Assembly: GCA_963734595.1 (NCBI GenBank)
Contig: CAVTHV010000016.1
Location: 84,519-148,518 of the forward strand
Length of the DNA stretch: 64,000 bases
Origin: an uncultured beta proteobacterium
GTDB lineage: Bacteria > Pseudomonadota > Gammaproteobacteria > Burkholderiales > SG8-41
Direction: 5' to 3'
The notes under the pieces are model-generated. The model made no database searches. It was not told the DNA's origin and saw only the letters and a list, made by a program, of their open reading frames with translations. Positions 18,204 through 46,841 of this stretch are shown here, one piece after another. The position numbers and the translations under genes are program-made. Within the stretch, counting starts at the first letter, position 1. The number at the start of each line of letters is the position of its first letter.

Positions 18204-18739
18204 GCCCCCTCCTCGTGCGCTGTGAGCTGCAATACCGGCTGCTGCGGCACGCGCCATTCTCCGGTCAGGCGCCAGCTGCGGCCTTCGTCCTCGAGCATCA
18301 CCAGCCAGCGTCCCGCGCGCGGCGCGGCGATCGCAGCCTCGTAGGCGCCGGCGCCGACCGCCGCAAGCCGCACCCGCTGGTCCAGTCCGGCATGCGTCGG
18401 ATGCACGATCCGCAATTGCAGCATGGACGGCAGCGGTGAAGGTCCCGACAGCGTGACCCGGATTCGGCCTGACGCAACATCCCACACCAGATCCGCTTTG
18501 TAACCGTGCGCCAGCGCGGCACGATCGCGTGTCAGCGTCTGGTTGACCGCGAGTCCCTGCTTGTAGTAATCGTCGACCACCAGGCCGTCATCGCTCCTGA
18601 CCGCCAGCCACAGCGTGATCATGCTGGCCACCACCACCAGTGCCGGCCCCGCCATCAGCAGCCAGGGCCAGGGTTCGCGGTACCACGGCACCGATGGTTG
18701 ATGAATTCGCGGCGTCATCGTTGCCCCCTCATCTGACAT
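18200..18739 (-). CDS. ccoH: FixH/CcoH family cbb3 oxidase assembly protein
   Basis: PWYREPWPWLLM followed by a TM helix and VVDDYYKQG, which is typical of FixH. It sits downstream of ccoG. Confidence 0.75.
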   Translation of the reverse strand: MSDEGATMTPRIHQPSVPWYREPWPWLLMAGPALVVVASMITLWLAVRSDDGLVVDDYYKQGLAVNQTLTRDRAALAHGYKADLVWDVASGRIRVTLSGPSPLPSMLQLRIVHPTHAGLDQRVRLAAVGAGAYEAAIAAPRAGRWLVMLEDEGRSWRLTGEWRVPQQPVLQLTAHEEGA

Positions 18740-20150
18740 AGAACATCGACTTCTCGTCGGCTTTCACGCCCGGCTGATCCCTGTCCGTGACATGAAAGAC
18801 GATGGCGTGCGAGCCCGGTTTGATATTGGCGGGATCGACGCGCACCGCGACCGCGACCCCCTGCGTGGTGGCGCCGGCGACCTCCACCGGCTGCGGCACT
18901 TCGACCACGAGGCCCGCCAGTCCCGTTACGGCGATGTTGTAGCGATGCGGCCGCTCGTCGGTGTTCATGATCTGCAGGCGGTAGACGTTTTCGACCGTGC
19001 CATCCCCGACTTCGCGCACCAGCGTCGCGCGGTCGCGGATCACGTCGACCTTGAGCGGCGATCTCAGGTACAGCGCCGCCATCAGGACCAGAACGATGCC
19101 GAGCAGCACCGCGCAGTACAACAGGATGCGCGGCCGGAAAACATTCGCGAGGATCCGGTCCTCGGGATATTTGCGCTTGATGGCGTTTTCCGTCGAGTAG
19201 CGGATCAGGCCGCGCGGATAGCCCATCTTGTCCATCACCTGGTTGCAGCCGTCGATGCACGCGGCGCACCCTATGCATTCGTATTGCAGACCCTCGCGGA
19301 TATCGATCCCGGTCGGGCACACCTGCACGCAGATGTTGCAGTCGACACATTCGCCCAGGCCCGCCGCCCTGTGATCGGCCGACCTGCTGCGCGAGCCGCG
19401 CGGCTCGCCCCGCTGCGCGTCGTAGGTGATGACCAGCGTATCGGGGTCGAACATCACGCCCTGGAAGCGCGCATAAGGACACATGTACTTGCATACCTGC
19501 TCCCGCATCCAGCCGGCGTTGCCGTAGGTGGCAAAACCGTAGAACAGGATCCAGAACGTCTCCCACGGCCCGGCATTCCAGCCCAGGACTTCCGCGACCA
19601 GGGTCTTGATCGGGGTGAAATAACCGACGAACGTGAAACCGGTCCACAGCGCAAGCGCGATCCACAGCGCATGCTTGAGCGATTTCAGGGCGAACTTGCG
19701 TGCACCGAGCGACCCCTTGTCGAGCCGCATGCGCTGCAGGTGGTCGCCTTCCACCATGTTCTCGATCCACATGAAGATCTCGGTATAGACCGTCTGCGGG
19801 CAGGCATAACCGCACCACAGGCGGCCGGCGATCGCGGTGAACAGAAACAGCGACAGCGCCGAGATCACCAGCAGCGCGGTGAGAAAAATGAAATCCTGGG
19901 GCCAGAACACCCAGCCGAAGATGTAGAACTTGCGCGCGCCGAGGTCGAACAGCACCGCCTGCCGCCCGTTCCAGACGAGCCATGGCATGCCGTAGAAAAC
20001 CGCCTGGGTGGCGAGCACCAGCGCAACGCGCCAGCTTGCGAACCAGCCATGCACCGCGCGCGAGTAGATTTTCTTCCGCACTTCATAGAGCGCGGTTTCG
20101 ACTTCGTTGGCGGGCGGGGCCAATTTGAGATTTCTTGCCGGTTGAGTCAT
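18729..20150 (-). CDS. ccoG: Cytochrome c oxidase accessory protein CcoG/FixG (membrane ferredoxin)
   Basis: Two ferredoxin-type Cys clusters (CVDCNICVQVCP, CIGCAACIDGC) plus CGYACPQ. Start chosen at MTQPARN. Confidence 0.9.
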   Translation of the reverse strand: MTQPARNLKLAPPANEVETALYEVRKKIYSRAVHGWFASWRVALVLATQAVFYGMPWLVWNGRQAVLFDLGARKFYIFGWVFWPQDFIFLTALLVISALSLFLFTAIAGRLWCGYACPQTVYTEIFMWIENMVEGDHLQRMRLDKGSLGARKFALKSLKHALWIALALWTGFTFVGYFTPIKTLVAEVLGWNAGPWETFWILFYGFATYGNAGWMREQVCKYMCPYARFQGVMFDPDTLVITYDAQRGEPRGSRSRSADHRAAGLGECVDCNICVQVCPTGIDIREGLQYECIGCAACIDGCNQVMDKMGYPRGLIRYSTENAIKRKYPEDRILANVFRPRILLYCAVLLGIVLVLMAALYLRSPLKVDVIRDRATLVREVGDGTVENVYRLQIMNTDERPHRYNIAVTGLAGLVVEVPQPVEVAGATTQGVAVAVRVDPANIKPGSHAIVFHVTDRDQPGVKADEKSMFYVR

Positions 20151-20205
20151 GTATTGCCTGACCGCAAAGACGCGAAGGTGTTCGCGCCTCTGCGGTGAAA
20201 GATGT

Positions 20206-21144
20206 TCACTTCTGTCCCTGGGCCGACAGGCCGTAGACATAGGCGGCAAGCAGGTGGATTTTCCCTTGGTCCAGAAGATTCTTGTGCGCCGGCATGACGC
20301 TGGTGCCTTCCGTGGCCATGGGCGTGCCGCGGCCCTTCATGATGGTCTCCATGATCGTTGCCTCGGAACCGCCATACAGCCAGATATTGTCGGTCAGGTT
20401 GGGTGCGCCCACTGTCTTGCTGCCTTTGCCGTCCGCGCCATGACAGGCCGCGCATATGGTCATGAACTTGGCCTTGCCGCGGAACGCGCGCAGGCTGTCG
20501 TGGGTGCGGCCCGAAAGCGACAGCACGTAATGGGCGACATCTTTCGCACCTTCATCGCCGCCGACTGCCGCGCCCTGCGACGGCATCACGCCGTTGCGCC
20601 CGTTGGTGATGCTTTCCTTGATGGTTTCAGGGTCACCGCCGTAGAGCCAATCGTTGTCGCGCAGACTCGGAAAACCCTTTCCTCCTCCCGCGTCCGATCC
20701 GTGGCACTGCGCGCAATAAGTCAGAAACAGCCGCTGCCCCATCTGCCGCGCTTCCGGATCGGCGGCGACCGCCTTGATGTCCTGCTTGAGAAACCTGGCG
20801 AACACCGGTCCGTACGTCGCCTCAGCCTGCGCCTGTTCCTGCTGATACTGGCCGGTCGAAGTCCAGCCGAAGTACCCGGCATTGCGGCCGAGACCCGGAT
20901 AGAGCACAAGGTAAACCAGGGCAAATACAATGGTGATGTAGAACAGCCACATCCACCAGCGCGGCAGCGGATTGTTCCATTCGGTGAGATCCTCGTCCCA
21001 CGTGTGGCCGGTGGTGCCGACCTGCTGGTCCGGCGCGGCCCGCTTGGTCGACAGCGCCTTGAGCAGCACCGCGCAGGCAATGATGCTGATCAGCGTGATC
21101 AGGGCGACATAGATGCCCCAGACGTCGCTTGTAAAATCACTCAT
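20206..21144 (-). CDS. ccoP: cbb3-type cytochrome c oxidase subunit III (diheme)
   Basis: N-terminal TM helix, WDEDLTEWNNPLPRWW, and two CXXCH motifs (CAQCH, CAACH). Confidence 0.9.
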   Translation of the reverse strand: MSDFTSDVWGIYVALITLISIIACAVLLKALSTKRAAPDQQVGTTGHTWDEDLTEWNNPLPRWWMWLFYITIVFALVYLVLYPGLGRNAGYFGWTSTGQYQQEQAQAEATYGPVFARFLKQDIKAVAADPEARQMGQRLFLTYCAQCHGSDAGGGKGFPSLRDNDWLYGGDPETIKESITNGRNGVMPSQGAAVGGDEGAKDVAHYVLSLSGRTHDSLRAFRGKAKFMTICAACHGADGKGSKTVGAPNLTDNIWLYGGSEATIMETIMKGRGTPMATEGTSVMPAHKNLLDQGKIHLLAAYVYGLSAQGQK

Positions 21145-21156
21145 CGTGGCTTCCCT

Positions 21157-21327
21157 TTATTCCCGGCCTTGCCGCCGGTTGCCGGATTCCGGCTCGTCGT
21201 CAAAAGGCAGTTGCGCGGCGGCGTCGAACGCCTGCTTGCGCTTGCCGCTCCACGCCCACGCGACGATGCCGATAAAAACCGCCAGCAGCACCAGCGTCAG
21301 GATCGATCTGACCAGATTGATGTCCAT
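21157..21327 (-). CDS. ccoQ: cbb3-type cytochrome c oxidase subunit IV
   Basis: Not in the ORF track. Manual translation gives MDINLVRSILTLVLLAVFIGIVAWAWSGKRKQAFDAAAQLPFDDEPESGNRRQGRE, lying between ccoO and ccoP. Confidence 0.75.
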   Translation of the reverse strand: MDINLVRSILTLVLLAVFIGIVAWAWSGKRKQAFDAAAQLPFDDEPESGNRRQGRE

Positions 21328-21332
21328 GCGCG

Positions 21333-21953
21333 TTACCTCACGTTTCTCAGCACAGTGCCCAGATTCTGCAGATAGGCGATGACCGCATCCATCTCGGTCT
21401 TGCCTTGCGCGCTCTCGGCGGCCTTGGCGATATCCTCGTCGCTGTACGGCACGCCCAGCACGCGCAGGGCGCGCATTTTCGCCGGCAGATCTGCGGCATC
21501 GAGGGGCCTTTGGTCAAGCCACGCGTAAGCCGGCATGTTGGACTCCGGCACGACATCGCGCGGATTGGTCAGATGCACGTGATGCCATTCATCGGAGTAC
21601 TTGCGCCCGACGCGCGCCAGATCCGGCCCGGTGCGCTTCGATCCCCACAGGAACGGATGGTCGTAGATGAATTCCCCGGCCACCGAATAGTGTCCGTAGC
21701 GCTCGGTTTCGGCGCGGAACGGACGGATCATCTGCGAGTGGCAGTTGTTGCAGCCCTCGCGGATGTAGATATCGCGGCCCGCGAGCTGCAGCGCCGTATA
21801 GGGTTTCAGTCCGGTCACCGGCTGCGTCGTCGATTTCTGGAAGAACAACGGCACGATCTCGACCAGGCCGCCGACGCTCACCACGAGGATCACCAGGATG
21901 ATCATCAGCGTCAGGTTCTTTTCGATCAGTTCATGGCTGATTTTTGTGCTCAT
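21333..21953 (-). CDS. ccoO: cbb3-type cytochrome c oxidase subunit II (monoheme)
   Basis: TM anchor, the heme motif CNNCH, and [16 protein letters not shown], which is typical of CcoO. Confidence 0.95.
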
Positions 21954-21968
21954 CTGCCGGATCTCCAG

Positions 21969-23393
21969 TTAGGCGTGCGCCGGTTGCACGGCGGGGATGA
22001 CCGCGTCGACCGCGCGGTGTCCGGCGGCGGTCTTCCACACGTTGTAGGCCATGATCAGCATGCCCGACAGATAACACAGCCCGCCCAGCAGGCGGATCGT
22101 GTAGTAGGGATAAGTCGCCTTCACGACCTCGGCGAAGCTGTAGGTGAGCGTGCCGTCGGGGTTGACCGCCCGCCACATCAGGCCCTGCATCACGCCGGCA
22201 ATCCACATCGCCGCGATGTAGAGCACGATGCCGATGGTGGCGACCCAGAAGTGCAGCGTCACCAGCCGCATGCTGCGCATCTCCACCTGCCCGAACAGGC
22301 GCGGGATCATGTAGTACATGCTGCCGATGGTGACCATGCCGACCCAGCCGAGCGCCCCCGAATGCACGTGGCCGATCGTCCAGTCGGTGTAATGCGACAG
22401 CGCGTTCACGGTCTTGATCGACATCATCGGCCCCTCGAAAGTCGACATGCCGTAGAACGACAGCGACACGATCAGGAACTTGAGGATGGGGTCGGTGCGC
22501 AGCTTGTGCCATGCGCCGGACAGCGTCATCATGCCGTTGATCATGCCGCCCCACGACGGCGCGAGCAGGATCAGCGAGAACACCATGCCGATCGACTGCG
22601 CCCAGTCGGGCAGCGCGGTGTAGTGCAGGTGGTGGGGGCCGGCCCACATGTAGGTGAAGATCAGCGCCCAGAAGTGCACCACCGACAGCCGGTACGAGTA
22701 GACCGGCCGGCCGGCCTGTTTCGGGATGAAGTAGTACATCATGCCGAGGAAACCCGCCGTCAGGAAAAAGCCGACCGCGTTGTGCCCGTACCACCACTGC
22801 ACCATCGCGTCCTGCACCCCGGCGTAGGCCGAGTAGGATTTCCACAGCGTGACCGGGATTTCGGCGCTGTTGACGACGTGCAGCAGCGCAATGGTGAGAA
22901 TGAAGGCGCCGAAGAACCAGTTGGCGACGTAGATGTGCGGCGTCTTGCGCCTGGCGATGGTGCCGAAGAACACCACCGCATACGCGACCCACACCAGCGT
23001 GATCAGGATGTCGAGCGGCCACTCGAGCTCGGCGTATTCCTTGGAAGTCGTGATGCCCATGGGCAACGTGATCGCCGCCCCCACGATCACCGCCGTCCAT
23101 CCCCAGAACGTGAAGGCGGCCAGGCCGTCGCTGAAGAGCCGCGTGTGGCAGGTGCGCTGCACGACATAATAGGACGCGGCAAACAGCCCCGAGCCGCCGA
23201 ACGCGAAAATCACCGCATTGGTATGCAGCGGCCGCAGCCGTCCGTAGGACAGCCATGGCGCCAGATTGAGGTCGGGCCAGATCAGCTGCGCGGCGATCAG
23301 CACCCCGACCGTCATTCCGACCACGCCCCACACCACGGTCATGATCGCGAACTGCCGCACCACCTTGTAATTGTACGTGGGCTGAGCTTCCAT
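21969..23393 (-). CDS. ccoN: cbb3-type cytochrome c oxidase subunit I
   Basis: 12-TM heme-copper oxidase with [19 protein letters not shown] and HHLHYT. Start moved to MEAQPTYNY (RBS gggagaag) because the ORF-track start would abut the FNR box. Confidence 0.95.
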
Positions 23394-23455
23394 CCCTGCT
23401 TCTCCCTGAATAATCGGCATGAAACGCATACTAAGCGACACGGAATCGCCCTGAT

Positions 23456-23469
23456 TTGATCTACATCAA
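23456..23469. promoter_or_regulatory. FNR/Dnr-type box TTGATctacATCAA
   Basis: Perfect consensus palindrome centred ~70 bp upstream of ccoN, shared with the divergent gene at 23550. Confidence 0.7.
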
Positions 23470-23549
23470 AAAGCCGGATTTCAGACGTCATACATTGTCA
23501 TTAATACGAACGGCAAGCGTAGCGCCGTGGAGACTGCGCCGCACAAAGG

Positions 23550-23960
23550 ATGCACAGCATGAACAGGACAATTCATACCCTGCTGATCGCGATCACGGCA
23601 GCCGCAATGGGCATCGGCGCCGCCGGAGTATCGCAATCCGCGGAACAGCAGCCGGCGCCGCCGGCGGCAAAAAAGACGCCGGCCATCTACGGCAGCCAGT
23701 TGATGACGCAGCAGGAACGCAATGAATACAGCGCCAGGATGCGCGCCGCCAAGACACCCCAAGAGCGCGAGACGCTGCGCGCCGAGCACCACAACGCGAT
23801 GCAGGCCCGCGCCAAGGAGCGCGGCGTGACGCTGCCCGAGCAGCCGCCGGCGGGAGCCGGGCCCGGCAAGGGAACCGGGATGGGTCCGGGAGCCGGAATG
23901 GGCCCGGGCGGCGGCATGGGGCCACGGCGCGACGGCAGCGGCCCGGGTCAGGCGCAATAA
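23550..23960 (+). CDS. Secreted protein with a helical Q/E/R-rich core and a Gly/Met/Pro-rich tail
   Basis: Signal peptide, LMTQQERNEYSARMRAAKTPQERETLRAEHHNAMQARAKERG, then GPGKGTGMGPGAGMGPGGGMGP. Confidence 0.5.
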   Translation: MHSMNRTIHTLLIAITAAAMGIGAAGVSQSAEQQPAPPAAKKTPAIYGSQLMTQQERNEYSARMRAAKTPQERETLRAEHHNAMQARAKERGVTLPEQPPAGAGPGKGTGMGPGAGMGPGGGMGPRRDGSGPGQAQ

Positions 23961-24013
23961 GAAATCGGGGAATTTAACGGCTTGGTATTGGTCAATCAAC
24001 AATAACGGAGATA

Positions 24014-24460
24014 ATGATGTTCAAAAACATTCTGGTGCCTACCGATGGTTCGGCGTTATCGCACAAGGCCATCAAGAAAGCGGCGATATTCGCGAAAGAA
24101 ACCGGCGCCCGCATCACCGGTTTTCACGTCGCGCCGGCTTATCGCTTCAACGTCTATGCCGATTATGTCCCGCCCGACTTCATGTTGCCGCCGGAATTCG
24201 CCGCACACACCAAGAAGGTCGCGCAGCGGCATCTCGACGTCATCAAGAAAGCGGCGGCAGGCGCGGGCGTCTCTTGCGCGTGCTACTACGTGACGAGCGA
24301 TTTTCCGGCCGACGCGATCATCAAGGCGGCGAGGAAATACAAATGCGATGGCATTTTCATGGCCTCGCACGGCCGTACCGGGTTGTCACGCCTGATGCTC
24401 GGCAGCGAAACCACGAAGGTGCTCGCCCAGGCGCACATCCCGGTTGTGGTCTGCCGCTAA
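24014..24460 (+). CDS. Universal stress protein (UspA family)
   Basis: MFKNILVPTDGS at the N-terminus and GSHGRTGLSRLMLGSETTKVL near the C-terminus. Confidence 0.9.
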   Translation: MMFKNILVPTDGSALSHKAIKKAAIFAKETGARITGFHVAPAYRFNVYADYVPPDFMLPPEFAAHTKKVAQRHLDVIKKAAAGAGVSCACYYVTSDFPADAIIKAARKYKCDGIFMASHGRTGLSRLMLGSETTKVLAQAHIPVVVCR

Positions 24461-24535
24461 GCCGTCGCGGCGGGGTACCACGTTGTGTTATGCATCAGGC
24501 AATTTCTTAACTGTTCAACCATGCAGGAGTAAATC

Positions 24536-24835
24536 ATGAACGCACCGAGAGAACAGCTGGTAGCCGACCTCAAGATACTGATGGCCGATGTCGAGGATCT
24601 GGTGAAAGCGACGGCGACCCAGTCGGGCGACAAAATCGCGGAAGTGCGCGGCCGCATTCAGCAGGCCGCGGCCGACCTCAAACCCCGCCTGGCCCAGGCT
24701 CAGGTCATGTTGAAAGACAAGGCCAACGTAGCGGCGGCGACCACGGACGATTACGTGCACGACCACCCCTGGACCGCAATGGGCGTCTCGGCGGGAATCG
24801 GGCTGATCATCGGCCTGCTCATCGGCCGGCGCTGA
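24536..24835 (+). CDS. DUF883 (ElaB/YqjD/YgaM) family membrane-anchored protein
   Basis: Helical N-terminus, then the HPWTAMGVSAGIGLIIGLLIGRR tail anchor. Confidence 0.8.
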   Translation: MNAPREQLVADLKILMADVEDLVKATATQSGDKIAEVRGRIQQAAADLKPRLAQAQVMLKDKANVAAATTDDYVHDHPWTAMGVSAGIGLIIGLLIGRR

Positions 24836-24836
24836 A

Positions 24837-24862
24837 CCGGAATTTTACGTATTCCGTTGTTT
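24837..24862 (+). terminator. Rho-independent terminator
   Basis: The stem cggaat/attccg has a 7-nt loop and is followed by ttgtttt. Confidence 0.5.
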
Positions 24863-24882
24863 TATAACGATTTATTGTTGAA

Positions 24883-25311
24883 GTGAGGCGTGGTGGCCCG
24901 CACCACGGCTGCGGCGTGAGCGTTCGACGGCTTGCCGCAGCAGCGGCGGTATTGCTTTGGGTATCGGCATTTCCGATTGCCCCCGTTCTCGCGCAGAACG
25001 GCGCGCTTGGCATTGCCATCACCAGCCCGAAAAACGAAGAGACCATCCACGACAATACCGGCAGCGTCCCGGTTTCGATCGCGATGCAGGGCAGCGGACT
25101 GCCGGAACACAGTTCCATCCGCGTGCTGCTCGACGGCCGGCCTTACGGGGCGGCCCGGTATGGCGCCTCGTTCACTTTGGAGGGTGTCGAGCGCGGCGAG
25201 CACACGCTGCAGGCACAGGTCGTGGACGCCGCGGGAAAAACCATCCTGTCTTCGGACACCGTGACGTTCTACATGTGGCAGGCGTCGCGGCTGTTCCCGG
25301 GCCGCAAATGA
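24883..25311 (+). CDS. Secreted hypothetical protein (single beta-rich domain)
   Basis: Signal peptide AAAAVLLWVSAFPIAPVLAQ. The start is more likely the GTG at 24916. I recognise no family motif. Confidence 0.45.
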   Translation: MRRGGPHHGCGVSVRRLAAAAAVLLWVSAFPIAPVLAQNGALGIAITSPKNEETIHDNTGSVPVSIAMQGSGLPEHSSIRVLLDGRPYGAARYGASFTLEGVERGEHTLQAQVVDAAGKTILSSDTVTFYMWQASRLFPGRK

Positions 25312-25324
25312 GCGGCGTGCCGGA

Positions 25325-25756
25325 TCAGGCGTAAGTCCGGACCCAGCGCAGCAGCCCGCCCAGATCCATGGCGCCCGCCTGGCGCGCGATTTCCCTGCCG
25401 TTTTTGAACAGCGCGAGTGTCGGAATGCTGCGAATGCCGAAGCGCGCCGCAAGCTCGGGCTCGGCTTCGGTATCGAGTTTGGCCAGCCGCAGCCGCGGTT
25501 CGAGTTGCGCCGCCGCCTGCTCGAAAACCGGCGCCATCATGCGGCATGGCCCGCACCACGGCGCCCAGAAATCGACGAGCACCGGAATGTCGCCGCCTGC
25601 ATGCCGCTCAAAATTGGCCGCGGTCAGCGCCACCGGGTGCGCGGTAAACAACGGCTGCTTGCACTGGCCGCAGCGCGGGCCATGTTCCAGGCGCTCCGGC
25701 AGGACACGGTTGAGCGTGTCGCAATGGGGACAGGCGATGCGCAGCGGCGCGCTCAT
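25325..25756 (-). CDS. trxC: Thioredoxin 2 (Zn-finger N-terminal extension)
   Basis: CPHC...CGQC zinc finger followed by WAPWCGPCR. Start at MSAPLRIA, overlapping the upstream stop (ATGA). Confidence 0.9.
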   Translation of the reverse strand: MSAPLRIACPHCDTLNRVLPERLEHGPRCGQCKQPLFTAHPVALTAANFERHAGGDIPVLVDFWAPWCGPCRMMAPVFEQAAAQLEPRLRLAKLDTEAEPELAARFGIRSIPTLALFKNGREIARQAGAMDLGGLLRWVRTYA

Positions 25757-25965
25757 GCGCCGCCTTGTTTTACGCCCGCTTTTTTCAGCATGATCTCCAG
25801 CGGGCAAAACCGGGTGAAGCCGCTCTGGAACAGGTTGAACCCGACGAAAACCGTGAACCACAACCAGTACGAACTCATATAGAGCGGGCTCGCCGGCGCG
25901 CCGAGCGCCAGCGAAATCAGCACGAAGGCGCCGGCGAATATGCGGATCAAACGTTCGGTGGTCAT
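25753..25965 (-). CDS. DUF2892 (YgaP C-terminal-like) small membrane protein
   Basis: 70 aa, two TM helices, and the conserved FQSGFTRFCP motif. Confidence 0.7.
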   Translation of the reverse strand: MTTERLIRIFAGAFVLISLALGAPASPLYMSSYWLWFTVFVGFNLFQSGFTRFCPLEIMLKKAGVKQGGA

Positions 25966-26030
25966 GAGTATCTCCGTTCAGAAAGGGAATGCATCGGATA
26001 TTGCGGCGATTGCCGCAATATCAAGCAGGA

Positions 26031-27399
26031 TCAATGTGGCGCCGGGGGCGCTTCGAGCTGGTCCGCGACCAGTTCCAGCAGGCTGTGCATGGTCTTGTCC
26101 CATTTGAAATGCGCCTGGCCGTCGTCGAAAGTCTGCCGGCAGTTCGAGCAGGTGGTCGTCAGCAGTTCCGCCCCGGTGGCGTCGACCTGCCTCATCTTGA
26201 TCTCGAACGCCTTGTGGCGCAGATCGTCGGCGCGATGGATGGTGACGACCCCGCCCCCGCCGCCGCAGCACCAGTTCATGTCGCCGGAGGACTCCATCTC
26301 CCGCAACTCGACGCCGAGCGCCTGCAGCACTTCGCGCGGCGCGGCCGTCGCGCCGCCCCTGCGCGAAGTCTGGCAGGGGTCGTGAAAGGTCAATGATTTT
26401 TCAAGTTTTTTCAGCTTGAGCCTGCCGTCGCGCACATTTTCGGCAAGAAACTCGGAGATGTGCAGCACCTTGAACGGCAACGGCTTGCCATAGACGTTGG
26501 CCCCCTGCCAGCGCAGCGCGCCATAGGCATGGCCGCATTCCGGCAGGATCAGCACTTTGGCGCCGCAGGCAATCGCCGCCTCGATCATTTTCATGCTCGA
26601 ATCCCGCTGCCACTGCACGTTGCCGGAGAGCATGCCGAAGTTGGTGGCTTCGTAACCGTCGCTGCGGATCGTCCACGATGCGCCGAGATGCGCCGAGTAT
26701 TTTCGCCACCGCCACGATCGACTGCGGATACTTCATGATCTCGATCGAGGACAGCGTAATCAGGATATCGGCCCGTTCGCGGTCGAGCGGGATTTCGACG
26801 CCGTAGTCGTCCGCCAGCCACTCGATGCGCTCCTTGAGCACCGCGGGCGTCGCCCCGAGCGGGCTGCCTTCGCGCTCGGCGCGCTGGGCGACCGCCCACA
26901 GTTCGTGCGGCACCAGTCCGGCCCGGAACATGCCATGGCGCGCGAGACCGACCAGCGCGGCGATGTCGATACCCATCGGGCAGATCATGGTGCAGCGCCC
27001 GCACATGGTGCACGAGTCGAACAGCAGCTCCTGCCACTCCTCCAGATTTTCGATGGTGACTCTGCTCTTGAGGTTGAGCGCGCGATAGAGCCAGGCGAAC
27101 GGCCCGGCTTCACGCTTGTAGGCCTGCTTGAACGGTTCGAGTTTCCAGATCGGCGTGTACTTCGGATCGTGGGTCGTCACGTAGAAATGGCAGGCTTCCG
27201 CGCATTGTCCGCAATGGATGCACGACTCCATGTAGGCGGCGGTCGCCGGGGTGAAATCGCTGGCGAAACTCTTCATCGCGATGGCGACGCGCTCCGTGTC
27301 GGCGAGTCCGCCCTGCCTGTCGGAGCGCACTTCCGGCTTCCTGATCGAGAAGCGCGCAGATTCCATGTCGATGGGATCGATCCTGTCGTTGTCGCTCAT
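26031..27399 (-). CDS. DsrK/HdrD-like cytoplasmic FeS protein with CCG domains, frameshifted by a 10-bp tandem duplication
   Basis: Ferredoxin motifs CIHCGQCAEAC and CTMCGRCTMICP, with CCG-type motifs (HDPC, NWCCGGGGG, TTCSNC). Pieces 26401..27762 and 26031..26633 rejoin if one copy of gatgcgccga (26677..26696) is removed. Confidence 0.75.
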
Positions 27400-28091
27400 G
27401 TGGCGGCTCCTTTGCGCGCGGCGGCGGCGCCGGTGATTCCGCGCGAGACGAATACCAGGAAGGCGTGGCTCAACTTGCCGAACGGCAGCCAGACGAACAG
27501 CAGTTCCACGCTCAGCAGATGGATCGCAAGCGGCAGCGGATCGAGCGGCACCACCGGGGCCACGCCGGAAGGAAATGGATGATTGATGACGATCATCCCG
27601 GTGACGAGCGGCAAAAAGGTCACGAACCAGCTGAAATAATCGTCGAAATTCGACAACAGGCGGAGCACCGGGTCGGTCAGGCGTTCCATGAGCATGATCA
27701 GCAGCGAAACGAACGTGATCGCCACCGCGAGATACACGACCGGCGCCGGCAGCGCGGGCCACGCCACGCCGGTGAGCCGTTTGATGAAATAAATGTGCGG
27801 CAGGAAGCCGAACGCGATCACGGCGAGACCGACATGGTAAACGTAAGCGTTGAACGTGCCGACTTTCTCGGTCTCGCGGAATTCCTTTTTGGGGATCATG
27901 CGGCTGACGATGGTGCGCAGCGCGCCGGCCAGCAGCCGCGTGTCCCGCGGCTCGGAAAAGTCAGGCCTGGTCTTGAGGCGGAAAATGCCGGCGATCCGCC
28001 ACACACTGCCCGCAAACAGGACGGCAAGCGACACCCAGAGCGCGGGCCCCCGTGCGAACTCGAGCAGGCTCATTGATCGGCTCCTTTCCAC
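27396..28091 (-). CDS. DsrM/NarI-like membrane b-type cytochrome
   Basis: Predicted polytopic (~5 TM helices by eye) with conserved His residues (VYHVGLAV, AIHLLSVELL). Its stop overlaps the downstream start (ATGA). Confidence 0.7.
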   Translation of the reverse strand: MERSRSMSLLEFARGPALWVSLAVLFAGSVWRIAGIFRLKTRPDFSEPRDTRLLAGALRTIVSRMIPKKEFRETEKVGTFNAYVYHVGLAVIAFGFLPHIYFIKRLTGVAWPALPAPVVYLAVAITFVSLLIMLMERLTDPVLRLLSNFDDYFSWFVTFLPLVTGMIVINHPFPSGVAPVVPLDPLPLAIHLLSVELLFVWLPFGKLSHAFLVFVSRGITGAAAARKGAAT

Positions 28092-28193
28092 GACTCGACA
28101 GCCCCGGTTTCCGGGTGACTGCGATGCTCCGGCCGCAACCGGGCTGGCTCCCTGCCATTTCGGCTAATTTAATCCCAAACCAGGCGGTCATTC

Positions 28194-28207
28194 TTGATTC
28201 AGGTCAA
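28194..28207. promoter_or_regulatory. FNR/Dnr-type box TTGATtcagGTCAA
   Basis: Perfect palindrome ~110 bp upstream of the DsrM-like gene. Confidence 0.55.
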
Positions 28208-28231
28208 ACTCCGTCCCCCCGGAAACGGGGA

Positions 28232-31200
28232 TCAAGGCGCGCGCGAGGCGTGACGCTTCCAGTTGGCCGCGTAATAGAGCACGGGGATCACGACCAGCGT
28301 CAGGATGGTCGATACGAAGATGCCGAACAGCAGCGATACCGCAAGCCCGTTGAAAATCGGGTCGTCGAGGATGAACAGCGCGCCCACCATCGCGGCCAGC
28401 GCGGTCAGCACGATGGGCTTGGCGCGCGTGGCGCCGGCGCGCACGATCGCCGTTTCGAAGTCCGCGGCCCTGCGCCACCTCGAGATTGATGAAGTCGACC
28501 AGCAGGATCGAATTGCGCACGATGATGCCGGCCAGCGCGATCATGCCGATCATCGAGGTCGCGGTGAACTGCGCGCCGAGCAGCGCGTGGCCGGGCATCA
28601 CGCCGATCACCGTGAGCGGGATCGGCGCCATGATGATGAGCGGAGTCAGATAGGATTTGAATTGCGCCACCACCAGCAGGTAGATGAGGATCAGGCCGAC
28701 GGCGTAGGCGATCCCCATGTCGCGGAAGGTTTCGTACGTGACCTGCCATTCGCCGTCCCACTTCAGGCTGTAACCGGCATAACGGTCGGACGGCTGGCGG
28801 ATGAAATACTCGCCGAGCCTGCCGCCCTGCGCGAGCGCCACGCCCGCGGTCTTGGCGCGTATCTCGAACATGCCGTACAGCGGGCTGTCGAGCCGGCCCG
28901 CCATGTCGCCGACGACGTAGACCACCGGCAGCAGGTCCTTGTGATAAATCGTCTTATCTTGCAGCGTCGATACCGGCCGCACCAGTTCCGACAACGGAAT
29001 CAGCGCGCCCGAATCCGAGCGCACGGCAAGCTGCATCAGCCGTCCCATGCCGGACTGCTCCTGCGGGCGGCAGGCCGATCTGCACCGGCACTTCGAACTT
29101 GGCAGCTGCCGGTGTGCAGCGGCGTCACGTTGTCTCCCCCAAGCGCCATCCGCACCGTGGCGACGATATCGCGCTGCGCCACGCCCATCAGCGCCGCCTT
29201 GCTGCGATCGACCTGCAGCACCAGCTTCTCGGCGTCGGCTTCGCTGCTGTCATCGATGTCGACGATGTCGGCCGAGGCCGCAAACGCGCCGCGAATGCGC
29301 TTGGCGACCGCGATCTGGCCGGCGTAATCCGGGCCGTAGACTTCGGCGACGATCGGCGCGAGCACCGGCGGTCCCGGCGGCACCTCGACCACCTTGACGC
29401 GCGCATGCGCACGCTGCGCGATGCGTTCGATCTCGGGACGGGCCGCGCCGGCAATGGCATGGCTTTCCCGGCTGCGCTGATGCTTGTCGAGCAGATTCAC
29501 CTGGATATCGCCGAGTTCCGGGCCGCTGCGCAGATAATACTGGCGCACCAGGCCGTTGAAGTTGATCGGCGCCGCGGTGCCGGCGTAAGCCTGGTAATCG
29601 GTCACCTCCGGAATCTTCGCCACGTAGGCGCCGATCTCGCGCAGCACGCGCGCGGTTTCCTCGAGCGCGGTGCCCGCCGGCATGTCGACGACGATCTGGA
29701 ATTCGGATTTGTTGTCGAACGGCAGCATCTTGAGCACCACCAGCTTGAACCCGGCCAGCGAAACGGAAAACGCAATCGCCGCCAGCGTGGCGATCCACAG
29801 CAGCCGGCGTTTCGGCTTGCCCCGCGCGCCGCGCAAAAACGGCGTGAGCACCCGTTCAAACAGCCGCAACGACCGGCCTCCCGCTTCTTCGCCCTGATGC
29901 TGATGCGCCGGCTTGCCCAGCAGTTTCAGCGCCAGCCACGGCGTGATGACGAACGCCACCGCCAGGGAAATCAGCATGCCGATGCTGGCGTTGATCGGGA
30001 TCGGGCTCATGTACGGCCCCATCAATCCCGAGACGAACGCCATCGGCAACAGCGCCGCGATCACCGTGAACGTGGCAAGGATGGTCGGGCCGCCGACTTC
30101 GTCCACCGCATTGGGAATCACATCAGCGGGCGGCGCATCCGACAACGCGCGGTGCCGGTGGATGTTTTCCACCACCACGATCGCGTCGTCGACCAGGATG
30201 CCGATCGAGAAAATGAGCGCAAACAGCGACACGCGGTTGAGCGTAAAGCCCCAGGCCCAGGATGCGAACAGCGTCGCCGCCAGCGTGAATATCACCGCCA
30301 GGCCCACGATCAGCGCTTCGCGCCTGCCGAGCGCAGCCCATACCAGCGCGATCACGGACAAGGTGACGAAAATGAGTTTCTGGATCAGCTTCTGCGCCTT
30401 GGCGTTCGCGGTCTCGCCGTAGTTGCGGGACAGCGTGACGTTCACGCCCTCCGGAATCACGCTGCTTTTCAGCTCCCCGATACGCTGCAGCACCCGGTCG
30501 GCGACATCCACCGCGTTCTCTCCGGGCTTTTTCGAAACCGCGATGGTGACCGCTGGAAACTCGCCGCGAGGCATTGCCGCGCCTGCCGCCGCGCCATTGC
30601 CGTACCATACGTATTGCCGCGGCTGCTCGGGACCATCCTCGATGCGCGCAATGTCGGCAATCCGGATCGGCCGTCCCCCGGCGCGCCCGACGATCAGCCG
30701 CGCAACGTCTTCCGCCGTGCCAAGAAAACCGCCGGTTTCCACCCAGATGTCCCGGTTGTCGCGCGTGAGCTTGCCGGACGGCAGCGACGCATTCGCCGCG
30801 AGCAGGGCGCCCCGGATATCGCCTGCGGTGATCTTGTACGCGTTAAGACGGTCGACATCGAGCAATACGCGCACCACGTGTGCAGCGCCGCCGATCGTGG
30901 TGACGGTGCGCGTGCCCGCGACGCGCTTCAGCTCGACCTCGGCGGCATTGGCGACCTGTTTCAATTCGTAGGCGCCGCGCTGCGCGTCCTGGGTCCATAA
31001 CGTCAAGGTGACGATGGGCACATCGTCGATCCCGACCGGCTTGACGATGAACTCTCCCACGCCCAGTTCGGGCGGCACCCAGTCGCGGTTGGCGAAGAGC
31101 GTGTCGTAAAGCCGCACCAGCGCCTGGATCCGGTCCTCGCCGACTTTGTACTGCACGGTCAGGATCGCAAGGCCCGGCTTCGAAACCGAGTAAACGTGTT

Positions 31201-31441
31201 CGATGCCGGAGATTTGCGCCACCACCTGCTCGGCCGGCGTCGCCACCAGCGCCTCCACGTCGCGCGCCGAGGCTCCGGGAAAGGGAATGAACACGTTCGC
31301 CATCGTGACGTTGATCTGGGGCTCCTCCTCGCGCGGCGTCACCAGCACCGCGAAGAGGCCGAGCAGAAACGCCACCAGCGCAATCAGCGGGGTGAGTTGA
31401 GACTCGAGAAAAATCCGGGTGATGCGTCCTGAGATGCCCAT
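28232..31441 (-). CDS. RND efflux transporter permease (AcrB/CzcA superfamily), interrupted by three apparent +1 frameshifts
   Basis: Starts at MGISGRITRIFLESQLTP and contains ILVDDAIVVVENIHRH. Pieces 29036..31441, 28188..29048 and 28232..28444 join. Frame breaks lie near 29105, 29063 and 28465. Confidence 0.85.
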
Positions 31442-31470
31442 GAGAGTCGGAGAATCCGCGGGACGGCCGC

Positions 31471-32515
31471 TCAGCGGCGCTCGCCGCTGTCTTTCAGGGC
31501 GATTGCGGCTTTGACAGGATCGAGCGCCACTTTCTCGCCCGGCTGCAACCCGCCAAGCACCTCGACGCCGTCGGCGCCGAAATCCTGACCCGGCCGTATC
31601 TGGCGCAGATGGACCACATTGTCGGCGCCGATGACGTAAACGGCGGTCACCTCGGTGCGCCTGACGATGGCGCGTGCCGGGATCACCAGCCGCCGCGACT
31701 GGCCGAGGATAAAATGCACGCGCGCGAACATGCCGGGATAGCTGCCCGCGACATATTCCCGCAGCGCGAGCCGCACGCGCGTGGTGTGCGTCTGCGGGTC
31801 CGCGGTCGGCAGCACGGTGATCTCCCCCGCCTTCACGGTGCGGTTCTGCGCGGGAAACTCGATATCGGCACGCGCGCTCTTCCTGATCTGCGCCGAGCTT
31901 CAGTTGCGGCACGTCGGCGACCACCCGCATGTCCGTGGGATCGAAGCCGGTCATCAGCGGCTTGCCGGGCGTCACCAGTTCACCGAGCTCGACATGGCGC
32001 GCCGCGACGATGCCGCTATAGGGCGCGGTGACCGTGGCAAACCCTTTCACGGTCGCCGCCCGGCTCGAAATCGAGACGGCGGCCTGCAACTGCGCCTGCG
32101 CCGCCTGAAATTCGGACAATGCCCGGTCAAGCGCCGCCTTGCTCACAAAGCTCTGCTTGAACAGCTGCTGGGTGCGTTCGTAATTCGCCCTGGCGTTCTG
32201 CAGCGTGGCCTGCGCCTGCGCGATCTGCGCCTGCGAGCTGGCCAGCGCGTCGCTGACCTCGCGCTCGTCGATGCGCACGATGACCTCGCCTTTTTTGACG
32301 GCATCGCCGACGTCGAACCGCACTTCGACTATCCGTCCCGAAATCTGCGCCGAGACCGTCGCCTGCCTGACCGCCTCGACCATGCCTTCCGCCGTGTAGA
32401 CCTCGCCGACCTCGCGATACTCGACGGCCGCCGCCTCCAGCGGATCGGCGGCATGCGCCCATCCTGCAGCGAGAAGCAAAAGAAGGAATAAAGTTCTGGC
32501 GACCACGGTGAACAA
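31471..32515 (-). CDS. RND-associated membrane fusion protein (HlyD/biotinyl-lipoyl fold), with one apparent +1 frameshift
   Basis: Signal-like segment TLFLLLLLAAGWAHA, then SAQISGRIVEV, a coiled-coil region and TAPYSGIV. The C-terminal piece is ORF 31471..31836. The frame break lies near 31890. The start is uncertain (TTG 32515 or GTG 32506). Confidence 0.75.
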
Positions 32516-32626
32516 GGATACGATAGTGGGGAATATTCCGCTATACCAACCCGCCGGCCTGGGCTCGACGCTTCGATCAGGACCGGACGACTCGCCGGCC
32601 GCTGCCGGGGCCCGCGCCATGACTTC

Positions 32627-32989
32627 TTATTGCCCGTGTCCCGGCGTCCGGCGCCCGCCGCTCCTGGTTTCGCCGCGCCGCTTCCGGGAATAGTCTTCGA
32701 GCTGCCGCTTCGCGGCATCGAACGCATCGCGCAACGCGACGTAGATATCCTCGCTGTGCTCGTGGTTCACCACGATTTCCTTTCCCGGCACGGCGATGTC
32801 GAGACGCACCATGAACTGCCGCCCCTGGTGGTGATGCTTGTGCGGCGCCTCCGCGACGACGCGGCACGACGTGATCGGCGTGAAGAATTGCTCGAGCTTG
32901 GCGATTCCCTGCCGGATATGGTCATCCAATGCCGGGGAATGGTCCATGTCGCGCACAGTGATCTGAACCTGGTTTTGCATGATTTTCAC
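32627..32989 (-). CDS. HPF/RaiA family ribosome hibernation factor (short form)
   Basis: VQITVRDMDHSPALDDHIRQGIAKLEQFF and DIYVALRDAFDAAKRQLED, which are typical of the sigma54-modulation/RaiA fold. Confidence 0.75.
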   Translation of the reverse strand: MKIMQNQVQITVRDMDHSPALDDHIRQGIAKLEQFFTPITSCRVVAEAPHKHHHQGRQFMVRLDIAVPGKEIVVNHEHSEDIYVALRDAFDAAKRQLEDYSRKRRGETRSGGRRTPGHGQ

Positions 32990-33003
32990 CTTCGTTGTTG
33001 CAG

Positions 33004-33453
33004 TTACTTGCGGCTTTGCATTTCGTGCGTCTGTTCCTTGGACACGATGCGCGTCAAATCGGTGAGCTGCTCCGCCAGCACCTCGAGCAGGTCATCGATG
33101 GTGACGATGCCCACGAGCTGGCCGTCGCCGCCGACCACCGGCAGCCGGCGCACGCCCTTGAAGCGCATCACCTCCATGGTTTCGAGAACACCCTGGCTCT
33201 CCGGCACCGTGATCAGTTCCGAGCTCATGATGTCGCCCACGGTGATCACTTTCGGATCGAGTTCCATGGCGTCCACCTCCATGACGATGTCGCGATCGGT
33301 CAATATGCCGACCGGCATGCGTTTGCCGGCGACCTCGTCGACCGCGACCAGGCTGCCGACGTGATAATGCCGCATCAGCTTCGCTGCCGCCTGAACGGCG
33401 GTGTCGCGGTTGACGAATACCACTTCCCGGTTGCAGATCTCGCCGATGCTCAT
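33004..33453 (-). CDS. CBS domain pair protein
   Basis: RBS aaggag lies 6 nt before the ATG at 33453. Two CBS motifs (HHVGSLVAVD.., GILTDRDIV; VRRLPVVGGDGQLVGIVTIDDLL). Confidence 0.85.
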   Translation of the reverse strand: MSIGEICNREVVFVNRDTAVQAAAKLMRHYHVGSLVAVDEVAGKRMPVGILTDRDIVMEVDAMELDPKVITVGDIMSSELITVPESQGVLETMEVMRFKGVRRLPVVGGDGQLVGIVTIDDLLEVLAEQLTDLTRIVSKEQTHEMQSRK

Positions 33454-33545
33454 GGTCTTCTCCTTTGACATCTTCCCGCCGGTCTCAGCGCTATGCACTC
33501 TCGACATTCTCGGTACCATGATAGGAGCGCCCGCAAGCGCTCCCC

Positions 33546-33559
33546 TTGATCCAGATCAA
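33546..33559. promoter_or_regulatory. FNR/Dnr-type box TTGATccagATCAA
   Basis: Perfect consensus palindrome, extended by the flanking cccc/gggg, ~95 bp upstream of the CBS start. Confidence 0.6.
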
Positions 33560-33594
33560 AGGGGCGGTCAGGGTATGTCCGCAGAACCGGTGCG

Positions 33595-35032
33595 TTATCC
33601 CTTGATGCAAACCCTGGGACGGAGAAATGCGACGCGGCGCGCCAGACCGGCCTGTTCCGTCGCCTCCGCCACCAGGTCGACGTCCTTGTAGGCGCCGGGC
33701 GCTTCTTCCGCGGCGCCCCGCATCGAGCGCGTGCGGATCAGGATGCCGCGCGCCGCCAGCTCGTCGATGAGTTGCCGGCCGTTCCATTGTTTGAGCGCCT
33801 GGTGGCGGCTCATCGCGCGGCCCGCGCCGTGGCTCGCCGAACTGAACGCCCGCTGCTCGCTTTCGCTCGTCCCGCACAGCACATAGGAACCGGTGCCCAT
33901 GCTGCCGCCTATGATCACCGGCTGGCCCGTCGCGCGATAGCGCAGGGGGACCGCCGGATGTCCGGGCCCGAACGCGCGGGTTGCGCCTTTGCGATGCACG
34001 TAGAGCAGCATCTCCCGGCCGTCGACGATATGCCGCTCCACCTTGCACGTGTTGTGCGAAATGTCGAACAGGGTTTCGAGCATCGGCCTGCGGCAGGACC
34101 CGCCCGAATGCCTCGCGCGTCAGATGCGTGAGGATCTGCCGGTTGGCAAGCGCGCAGTTGATCGCCGCGTTCATGGCGCCGATATACTGCTGCCCTTCCG
34201 GCGAATTGATCGGCGCGCACGCGAGTTCGCGATCGGGCAGTTCGATGCCGAGCCGGGAAGCCGCCTTCGCCAGGCTCACGAGATAGTCGGTGCCGATCTG
34301 ATGGCCGAGGCCGCGCGAGCCGCAGTGGATCGAAACGACGACCTGCCCCTGCCGCAGGCCGAATGCCTCGGCCGCTGCGCGATCGTAGATGCGGTCGACC
34401 ACCTGCACTTCGAGATAGTGATTGCCGGAACCCAGAGTGCCCATCTCGCCGCGCTGCCGTTTCTTTGCCAGCAGCGACACGTTCGCCGGGACCGCGCCTT
34501 CGACGCAACCCTGTTCTTCGACGAACTCCAGATCGGCAGCCGTGCCGTAACCGCGGCGCACCGCCCACTGCGCGCCGCCGCGCAGCACCTCGTCGAGCTT
34601 CTCGGGCGTCAGCTTGAGATCGCCCTCTTCGCCGACGCCCGGCCGGTATGCTCCGAAACAGGACATCGGCGAGCGTGCGGCACATGCGGCACGATAGCGT
34701 CAAGCGTCGAGGTTGCTGCGCAGGCAGCGGATGCCGCAGGAAATGTCGAAACCGACACCGCCGGCGGAAATGATGCCGCCGCGCCCGGGATCGAACGCGG
34801 CCACGCCGCCGATCGGAAAACCGTAGCCCCAGTGCGCGTCGGGCATGGTCATCGCGCAGCCCACGAGGCCGGGCAGCCGCGCGACGTTGGTCAGTTGCTC
34901 GAGCACCTTGTCGTCCATGGTGGCGAGCAGTTCGGCATTGCCGTAAAGCCGGACTTCGCCGCGGCGCTCGCCCGTCGCGAGCGGCACCGTCCAGCACCAC
35001 GGATCGATCTGCTGCAGACTGGTCAGTTTCAT
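33595..35032 (-). CDS. rtcB: RNA ligase RtcB, interrupted by about four frame disruptions
   Basis: [48 protein letters not shown] and SHGAGR. Pieces 34700..35032, 33491..34666 and 33595..34083 join. Disruptions lie near 34700, 34673, 34640 and 34090. Confidence 0.9.
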
Positions 35033-35043
35033 GACCGGCTTCC

Positions 35044-35495
35044 TCAGACGTCGACGACACAGCGCGCTTCCCAGCCCGCCTGCGCCTGTTTCACGCGAAA
35101 GCATCGTCAATGTCGCTCCCTTGACCTCCACGCCGCGTTCGAGACCGTCACGCCAGTTTTCGCCTGCGGCCGATCCGCGCCATACCGCGCCATCCCGCTC
35201 GAGATGGAAGGTGGCAAACACCATGCCATTTTCGCGCGCGGCACCAAGCAAGGCGTTGAGCCATCGTCACCAGCGCGAGTTCGGTATCGGCCTCCTCGAA
35301 CTCGATCTTCACGCTGCGCGCCGCGCGCACTCCGGCAAGATCGGTCATGATCGAGAACATCGCCGCCGCAGCGGTCTCGAACGCCTGTTCAACAGAAGCA
35401 CCGCGCCCGATGATGCCGATATCCGCATCGTGCCCGAAATAGGCATCACGCTTGCCGGATTCCATGCTGGCGCCCTGATCTGTCGGGCTGGTCAT
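35044..35495 (-). CDS. Archease (RtcB activator), with two apparent +1 frameshifts
   Basis: [14 protein letters not shown] at the N-terminus. The corrected C-terminus reads [29 protein letters not shown]. Frame breaks lie near 35268 and 35094. The stop lies 11 nt before rtcB. Confidence 0.75.
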
Positions 35496-35568
35496 TTTCC
35501 GCCGTTGCGCCGCACATCAGGCGCGCGCACCATAATTGCTCATGTTAGCCATGCCGGCATCGGTTTGC

Positions 35569-35582
35569 TTGATCTAGGTCAA
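35569..35582. promoter_or_regulatory. FNR/Dnr-type box TTGATctagGTCAA
   Basis: Perfect palindrome ~80 bp upstream of the archease-rtcB operon, and also upstream of the divergent gene at 35652. Confidence 0.6.

Positions 35583-45521: not shown

Positions 45522-46841
<1,320 letters not shown>

Follow-up and report, generated by a model that had tools for sequence, protein, structure and literature searches.

Does a short string of genes on the minus strand of a 64-kb stretch of DNA from an uncultured beta proteobacterium (contig CAVTHV010000016.1; the whole stretch is called the window below) encode a respiratory route from the quinone pool to thioredoxin 2 (TrxC, Trx2)? The region analysed, positions 25325..28207, carries a gene for a membrane protein and one for a cytoplasmic iron-sulfur (FeS) protein with a CCG motif, followed by genes for a DUF2892 protein and TrxC, and a preliminary description had read the four as a quinol-driven, NADPH-independent relay. 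Our analysis points elsewhere. We think it somewhat better than an even bet that the membrane and CCG proteins form a stand-alone paralogue of Isp1/Isp2, within the wider DsrMK/HmcEF/TmcBC kind, and that their place next to trxC is a local accident of one Burkholderiales lineage and not a conserved functional unit. The elements listed earlier are all present and in the order given (FNR-type box, membrane protein, Fer4 and CCG protein, hairpin, DUF2892 protein, TrxC), and both ATGA overlaps, of the membrane with the CCG gene and of DUF2892 with trxC, are genuine; a break in the frame of the CCG gene had been overlooked and the hairpin had been misplaced and under-sized. The features of the region are the following.

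28207..28194, minus strand: FNR/CRP-type box TTGACctgaATCAA, a 9/10 match to TTGAT-N4-ATCAA
27396..28073, minus strand: Isp1-like membrane protein, a putative dihaem cytochrome b of the NarI/HmcE/TmcC type, 225 residues, about five transmembrane helices
26031..27399, minus strand: Isp2-like cytoplasmic FeS protein (Fer4 and CCG), about 455 residues once repaired, its frame broken here
26690..26694, minus strand: site of the +1 frameshift, one extra G/C in CTCGGCGCAT, placed by DNA alignment with relatives
25997..26022, minus strand: hairpin with a perfect 11-bp stem and a 4-nt loop, the arms (25997-26007 and 26012-26022) being fully complementary
25753..25965, minus strand: DUF2892/YgaP-like_TM two-helix membrane protein, 70 residues, Pfam PF11127 at 3e-15
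25325..25756, minus strand: TrxC, 143 residues, its start overlapping the DUF2892 stop (ATGA)

Family of the membrane and CCG proteins

The membrane protein matches the NCBIfam families TmcC (7e-28) and HmcE (1e-24) over its full length, in both cases below the family cut-off, and it gave no match in Pfam or in a search of the PDB. The CCG gene starts at 27399, where it overlaps the stop of the membrane gene, and ends at 26031; the best NCBIfam matches of its product are HmcF (7e-36), TmcB (5e-32) and DsrK (4e-30), all far below the cut-offs. Once repaired, this protein has thousands of relatives, the best 120 of which are intact, 450-460 residues long, more than 70% identical to it and named in the databases only as '(Fe-S)-binding protein'. 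The homologue scan covered one genome per GTDB species and yielded 343 matches, 80 of whose loci were fetched; beside these stand a separately fetched NCBI genome locus (L001) and three short contigs of the same lineage (L085, P0001 and L002, which duplicates L001). Neighbouring open reading frames were clustered and the cluster representatives read for identity. The CCG protein is 68-84% identical to its homologues in the 80 species-level loci, and in 83 of 84 loci the CCG gene is immediately preceded by the membrane gene, the remaining locus being cut by the end of its contig.

These homologues fall into two groups. In 41 copies the pair is embedded in a [NiFe] hydrogenase operon with the order hynS (the small subunit, with a Tat signal), membrane gene, CCG gene, hynL, and hypABCD genes and a maturation protease lie nearby; Acidithiobacillus, Thioalkalivibrio and Sulfuriferula loci are among them. 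This order, hynS-isp1-isp2-hynL, is that of the Isp-type, group 1e [NiFe] hydrogenases, in which Isp1 is a b-haem membrane protein and Isp2 is heterodisulfide-reductase-like (PMC7735108, PMC10892978). The other 45 copies stand alone. A neighbour-joining tree, a distance tree without support values, splits the embedded from the stand-alone copies almost fully, the exceptions being L071 and the tandem copy L020_3176, and assigns the window, together with L006, L005 and L001, to the stand-alone sister group and not to the embedded copies. A tblastn search with hynS and hynL representatives found no match in the 64-kb window, where the pair is flanked by an RND pump upstream and DUF2892 downstream and not by hynS or hynL. 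Three genomes (L009, L068 and L075) hold one embedded and one stand-alone copy each, the latter just after a gene for a formate-dehydrogenase-type cytochrome b. In Sulfuriferula sp. AH1 (L003/L004; CP021138.1, 7327..9353) the stand-alone pair lies between selA and selB, right after fdnGHI-fdhE. In L020 (1710..4453, on a contig binned as Candidatus Methylomirabilis) two CCG genes follow hynS and the membrane gene in tandem, the second copy being 61% identical and basal in the tree.

The likeness to Isp1/Isp2 of the hydrogenase operons (Thiocapsa, Allochromatium, Acidithiobacillus, Thioalkalivibrio) extends to about 70% identity (68-73%) in the CCG subunit and 45-55% in the membrane subunit, to the same 225 + 450-residue pair, whose reading frames overlap or closely abut (ATGA in the window), and to identical His and Cys motifs. 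The window pair differs in lying outside a hydrogenase operon, in a separate stand-alone clade, with an FNR-type box upstream. In the membrane protein, His80, His93, His185 and His203 are invariant in 79 homologues, and these four fit two putative bis-His b haems as in NarI-type anchors. The CCG protein has two CxxCxxCxxxC(P) motifs (CIHCGQCAEAC and CTMCGRCTMICP), a PECGH motif and one CX34CCGX38CX2C motif, and all the Cys and His residues of these motifs are invariant in 87 of 87 sequences. It thus carries the signature of the DsrK/HmcF/TmcB catalytic subunits, a single CCG motif together with a T/GECGH cysteine that has been proposed as catalytic (PMC10861901). In a cryo-electron microscopy preprint on DsrMKJOP, sulfur handling is assigned to the Cys and His of ECGH beside the single non-cubane cluster (10.64898/2026.08.25.746951).

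Like the DsrMK core of DsrMKJOP, and like HmcEF and TmcBC, all from sulfate reducers, the pair combines a NarI-type dihaem anchor with a cytoplasmic subunit that bears the (T/G/P)ECGH cysteine, a single CCG motif and two [4Fe-4S] motifs. The family scores are nevertheless low, with 100 and 105 bits for the two halves of the CCG protein against a DsrK cut-off of 400, 20.5 against 300 for DsrM, 97.5 against 240 for TmcC and 124 against 750 for HmcF. Furthermore, the last CCG ligand is a Cys in the window protein and an Asp in many DsrK, the flanks are an RND pump and DUF2892 and not a multihaem cytochrome c, and the window host is presumably a ubiquinone and not a menaquinone organism. Among the annotated neighbours we noticed no dsrJOP, dsrAB, dsrC or cytochrome c partner, no search having been aimed at them. 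HdrDE of methanogens likewise combines a membrane cytochrome b with a cytoplasmic Fer4/CCG subunit and so connects a carrier in the membrane with disulfide reduction; HdrD, however, has two CCG motifs and two non-cubane clusters, whereas the window protein has one Pfam CCG domain and retains only the ECGH cysteine of the first site, and its similarity to HdrB is weak (1e-5).

The earlier assignment to a DsrMK/HdrDE-type module, that is a dihaem-type membrane anchor with a cytoplasmic FeS protein bearing one CCG motif, therefore stands, and the statement that no such system had been described was too strong, since the pair falls in the named Isp1/Isp2 family (PMC7735108, PMC10892978). What is new here is the stand-alone, probably FNR-controlled form of Isp1/Isp2, the DsrMK-type kind being already known. 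To our knowledge, Isp1/Isp2 have so far been considered solely in their role as accessory subunits in sulfur-linked hydrogenases, and we found no description of a stand-alone two-gene module in the literature on sHdr, TusA and quinone.

Linkage of the pair to DUF2892 and trxC

The DUF2892 protein scores 56.4 bits against a PF11127 gathering score of 25.3 and has an FCP motif that is conserved in an alignment of ten homologues. TrxC scores 152.3 bits against the cut-off of 125 of the NCBIfam TrxC equivalog, matches Pfam Thioredoxin (5e-29) and Zn_ribbon_Thio2 (3e-9), and shows the N-terminal Zn-ribbon with two CxxC and the active site WCGPC (CPHC...CGQC...WCGPC).

DUF2892-trxC lies directly behind the pair only in L001, L002, L005 (84% identical), L085 (94%) and the P0001 contig (97%), which amount to two distinct genomic loci and three short contigs of one lineage with the synteny CBS-MFP-RND-pair-DUF2892-trxC-DUF883-Usp-ccoNOQP. 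Among the 80 species-level loci the direct linkage is confined to L005, and L017 has DUF2892-trxC about 4 kb from a hydrogenase-embedded pair; it is thus absent from 78 of the 80. The closest relative without the cassette, L006 (82% identical), keeps the same synteny, with 84 nt from the CCG gene to the next gene. Seen from the other side, in 80 metagenome loci with TrxC relatives of 40-75% identity, the pair is present in none of the 47 that have enough upstream DNA. A tblastn search found DUF2892 in just four of the TrxC-relative loci, and a profile hidden Markov model built from ten DUF2892 sequences returned the same four.

The company that trxC and DUF2892 keep more widely is the type of efflux pump found directly upstream of the pair in the window. 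This pump adjoins trxC and/or DUF2892 in six other loci, and it adjoins stand-alone pairs in 11 distinct loci (12 matches, with L002 duplicating L001).

28232..32620, minus strand (window): divergent MFP-RND efflux pump, with MFP at about 31474..32620 and RND at 28232..31441, and three frame breaks
L125, 3325..8407: divergent CsoR/RcnR-family regulator, then DUF2892-trxC-MFP-RND
L137: DUF2892-trxC-MFP
L163: trxC-RND-DUF2892
L099: MFP-RND-trxC
L124: RND-lipoprotein-trxC
L079, 988..5373: DUF2892-MFP-RND-pair

DUF2892-trxC is therefore a two-gene cassette that can occur apart from the pair and that in other places keeps company with the same MFP-RND pump type, and the simplest reading is that in this lineage a pair under FNR control sits inside a pump/DUF2892/trxC neighbourhood. 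The presence in L125 of a CsoR/RcnR-family regulator beside DUF2892-trxC-MFP-RND hints at a stress-responsive export module.

The preliminary description had proposed a relay, independent of NADPH and used under anoxia, in which the pair would oxidise quinol and pass the electrons on to Trx2; DUF2892 might then serve as an adaptor at the membrane. We now consider this relay improbable. In its favour, all four genes run in the same direction, closely spaced and with two ATGA overlaps, behind a conserved FNR box, and five loci or contigs of one lineage retain this order; the ECGH/CCG catalytic site is preserved, and other stand-alone pairs adjoin small sulfur-carrier or thiol proteins. A precedent exists in Bradyrhizobium diazoefficiens, where blr5774-trxC-bsr5776 combines trxC with an adjoining DUF2892 gene, downstream of an oxidoreductase and behind a FixK2/NnrR-type (FNR-type) box; in that unrelated organism, however, the operon encodes a soluble oxidoreductase of the NAD(P)/FAD kind and trxC precedes DUF2892 (PMC6710368). 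In Azospira, DUF2892 is upregulated about 10-fold with H2S, a link to sulfide stress (PMC5358917). By analogy with these two cases, a lineage-specific functional link of the pair to the cassette would be a minority possibility.

Against the proposed reduction of Trx2 stand the counts given above, with no pair in any of the 47 TrxC loci and no cassette in the syntenic L006, the preference of trxC/DUF2892 for the RND pump and the frameshift in the CCG gene. The four-gene linkage is not conserved, which is the outcome that the preliminary description had itself named as telling against it, and a functional link to Trx2 is not supported. The energetics are also unfavourable. Burkholderiales are ubiquinone organisms, and the window encodes UbiU, an enzyme of anaerobic ubiquinone synthesis. 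Ubiquinone/ubiquinol lies at about +100 mV and thioredoxins at about -220 to -270 mV, so that, on these generally known potentials, quinol-driven Trx reduction with ubiquinone would run strongly uphill, by roughly 0.3 V for a two-electron transfer. The same caution has been voiced for menaquinol (about -70 mV), in a paper that gives a span of -32 to -309 mV for potentials of the thioredoxin family (PMC10861901). A quinol-to-Trx2 relay should hence not be annotated or pursued from gene order alone.

The hairpin between the two gene pairs bears on whether a terminator separates them, which the preliminary description had named as a further point that would tell against the relay. The hairpin is real, and its stem has 11 bp at 25997..26022 where 8 bp at 26006..26025 had been described. 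It sits between the Isp2-like gene and DUF2892, which are 65 nt apart, and folds as RNA at -23.4 kcal/mol (z = -2.4). It has no U-tract or T-run and was not called by the terminator scan; it occurs only once in the window and in none of the 165 loci fetched, not even in L085, L001 and L005, which are close relatives, and an Rfam scan of 24500..28600 found no match. Both a terminator and a repeat element were thus rejected, and the hairpin, being neither a canonical terminator nor conserved, decides nothing about the separation of the two pairs; the four genes may be co-transcribed in this lineage.

FNR-type boxes, sulfur neighbours and possible function

The FNR-type box ahead of the pair, which had been noted before, is confirmed; it lies 25 nt past the RND stop codon, its centre about 127 nt upstream of the ATG of the membrane protein, and boxes occupy the equivalent place in L001 (TTGATTTAAATCAA) and L006 (TTGACGTAAATCAA). 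Across the family, such boxes are found upstream of 19 of 41 stand-alone pairs and of none of 36 embedded ones, against a background of 0.03 per 300 nt that would give about 1.2 in 41. The suggested link to anoxia is accordingly retained in a qualified form: from the conservation of the box, an FNR-type activator probably turns on the pair when oxygen is low, and the stand-alone pairs look like members of a low-oxygen regulon across several clades. The window itself has 15 FNR-type boxes with at most one mismatch, spanning 5905..46888, where 0.79 would be expected, and is rich in genes of anaerobic respiration, to which narK, recognised by eye from its translation, may be added.

14639..16045: hemN, recognised by eye from translations of the open reading frames
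16420..17172: fnr, NCBIfam-confirmed
20206..23441: ccoNOQP, by match to the L001 orthologues, ccoG likewise
41643..44589: nrdDG, recognised by eye from translations of the open reading frames
44693..45382: a second Crp/Fnr-family regulator, NCBIfam-confirmed
45540..46841: SQR-like flavoprotein, a weak NCBIfam match
46974..47987: ubiU, NCBIfam-confirmed
56105..62744: narGHJI, narI NCBIfam-confirmed and narGHJ recognised by eye

A second property separates the two groups of copies. A sulfur-carrier or thiol-redox gene lies within 2.6 kb of 19 of the 45 stand-alone copies as against 1 of the 41 embedded copies (Fisher 6e-6). These neighbours, whose TusA/DsrE/thioredoxin-type assignments are backed by Pfam, are of several kinds. 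In nine loci TusA comes immediately downstream; others have DsrE downstream and a divergent DsrE2 upstream, a thioredoxin-fold protein of the periplasm, or DUF2892-trxC. The tusA loci (L018, L038, L054, L064, L065, L069, L070, L072 and L083) belong to one stand-alone clade, with tusA at about +1430..+1560 from the CCG start and, upstream, often an SQR-like gene and a Crp/Fnr regulator. Where the contig continues after tusA, there follow histone-deacetylase-family, two radical-SAM, geranylgeranyl-reductase-like and lipoate-ligase-like genes; the last of these and the nearby SQR-like genes were recognised by eye from translations. The set resembles the LipS1/LipT/LipS2/sLpl set of sHdr systems (PMC11094781), and we found no description of an association of the pair with tusA and lipoate-type genes in the literature.

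The reading of the pair that we favour implies the following mechanism. The Isp1-like subunit would exchange electrons with the ubiquinone pool through two b haems held by the four invariant His. In the Isp2-like subunit they would travel along two cubane [4Fe-4S] clusters and reach one non-cubane cluster, next to which lies the ECGH cysteine, the residue that handles protein-bound sulfur in DsrK. The substrate would likely be a sulfur-carrying or disulfide-bonded cytoplasmic protein and not a defined small molecule. With ubiquinone, electrons would preferentially flow from thiol or persulfide to quinone, because the Trx potentials lie far below that of ubiquinone in a ubiquinone host with UbiU encoded in the window. 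More broadly, the stand-alone clade might be read, though we hold this to be doubtful, as an undescribed FNR-controlled quinone-linked oxidoreductase for protein-bound sulfur, whose cytoplasmic partner is interchangeable between lineages (TusA with LipS1/LipT/LipS2/sLpl-like genes, DsrE/DsrE2, a thioredoxin-fold protein, DUF2892 with TrxC in this lineage). If this were true, the Trx2 link would be one real case of a general carrier-to-quinone relay under anoxia, operating probably in the thiol/persulfide to quinone direction.

The pair could also be a plain electron conduit between the quinone pool and a soluble or periplasmic partner, devoid of sulfur chemistry and with incidental neighbours. 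The closest relatives indeed serve a hydrogenase (Isp1/Isp2 for HynSL), some stand-alone copies come after formate-dehydrogenase genes (L003) or after genes for a cytochrome b of the formate-dehydrogenase type (L009, L068, L075), and 26 of the 45 stand-alone loci have no sulfur gene nearby. An AlphaFold2 model of P0001 (pLDDT 79) has mycobacterial EtfD (PDB 9ojn) as its best Foldseek match, with a TM score of 0.68 over the whole protein, followed by LutA and HdrB, and EtfD is likewise the closest solved structure by sequence (phmmer 2e-20). EtfD (the Rv0338c homologue; EMO), which shares the domain order and the non-cubane cluster motif, employs this architecture for nothing but the conduction of electrons from ETF to menaquinone, and its non-cubane cluster has the equivalent histidine as a ligand, which renders the cluster non-catalytic (PMC13083937). 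EtfD is however one fused polypeptide with an extra linear [3Fe-4S] cluster, whereas the window has two genes, and in an alignment using the ligands described for EtfD (PMC13083937) the window protein lacks three of the four, a single one being Cys; no etfAB was seen among the annotated neighbours, no search having been aimed at these genes. The ECGH cysteine with a single CCG is furthermore the signature tied to sulfur catalysis in DsrK/HmcF/TmcB (PMC10861901) and is invariant here, sulfur-carrier genes are enriched beside the stand-alone copies, and no conserved candidate partner gene is present. Taken together, we regard a mere conduit as unlikely.

The main interest of the locus resides in the stand-alone clade as a whole and not in the four-gene string. 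About half of the sampled Isp1/Isp2 homologues are free-standing, nearly as conserved as the others, preceded by FNR-type boxes and often placed beside TusA/DsrE/thioredoxin-type genes. Should they connect sulfur carriers of the cytoplasm with the quinone pool, they could supply a missing link by which electrons from protein-bound sulfur enter respiration in denitrifiers and in sulfur oxidisers without Dsr, and would offer a simple two-subunit model for DsrK-type single-cluster chemistry.

The frame break and remaining features of the window

In the window the Isp2-like gene is divided into two open reading frames, 26401..27762 and 26031..26633, with a change of frame near 26690. A DNA alignment shows one base more in the window, CTCGGC[G]CAT, than in three relatives, and P0001, the 97%-identical intact metagenomic protein, reads KILGHLGASWT at the break site. 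A 10-bp tandem duplication (CTCGGCGCAT twice) was considered and rejected, as the homologues have three more residues at this place (KILxHLGxxWT) and the DNA alignment shows a single extra base.

Such a break raises the possibility that the gene is a true pseudogene and that the module is decaying, without a current function in this genome. The +1 shift relative to intact homologues and its position outside a homopolymer run speak for this, and none of the other breaks in the window falls in a long homopolymer either. On the other hand, at least five more breaks affect otherwise well-conserved neighbours that are intact in the orthologues of L001 and L005 (one in MFP, two in RND and two in a zeta-toxin-like kinase, at about 28460, 29105, 31894, 38818 and 38940), and narG (59000..62744) is seemingly split into two overlapping open reading frames, a pattern more in keeping with indels from assembly or sequencing. 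Both halves of the Isp2-like gene are also 83% identical to orthologues that are intact, and show neither stop codons nor further signs of decay. We therefore judge decay to be very improbable. The many frame breaks suggest either an indel-prone assembly or unusually many pseudogenes, and because neighbouring well-conserved genes are broken too, an assembly indel is at least as likely as a real pseudogene in the case of the Isp2-like gene.

Several points weigh against the reading of the pair as a stand-alone Isp1/Isp2 paralogue that came to lie beside trxC by accident. The gap between pair and DUF2892 is just 55-65 nt in the window's lineage, with no predicted promoter or canonical terminator in it, and co-transcription with a lineage-specific functional link to TrxC may exist; the Bradyrhizobium FNR-box operon of FAD oxidoreductase, trxC and DUF2892 is a precedent for a reductase beside the cassette (PMC6710368). 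EtfD, of the same fold, acts as a plain electron wire (PMC13083937). More than half of the stand-alone loci, the 26 already mentioned, have neither a sulfur nor a thiol neighbour, and the neighbour classes track phylogeny, so that no more than about 4-5 of the events are independent. Where quinone binds and which way the electrons run we only infer, and the frameshift, if real, would mean a dead module in this genome.

The remaining observations concern the surroundings of the pairs. The MFP-RND pump of the window scores below the cut-off against all the named RND subfamilies, so that no subfamily fits. Downstream of hynL, six embedded loci (L035, L044, L053, L056, L059 and L066) share three conserved genes (clusters c45, c46 and c56) that are V-type ATPase-subunit-like by translation. 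On the plus strand of the window, 23550..23960 encodes a small secreted protein with repeated '...TPQER..L/R..H...M/Q..RAKE.G.TLP' units, for which the family scan gave no match, and a longer protein with the same '...TPQER...' repeats (cluster c200) adjoins the stand-alone pairs in L023, L034 and L051.

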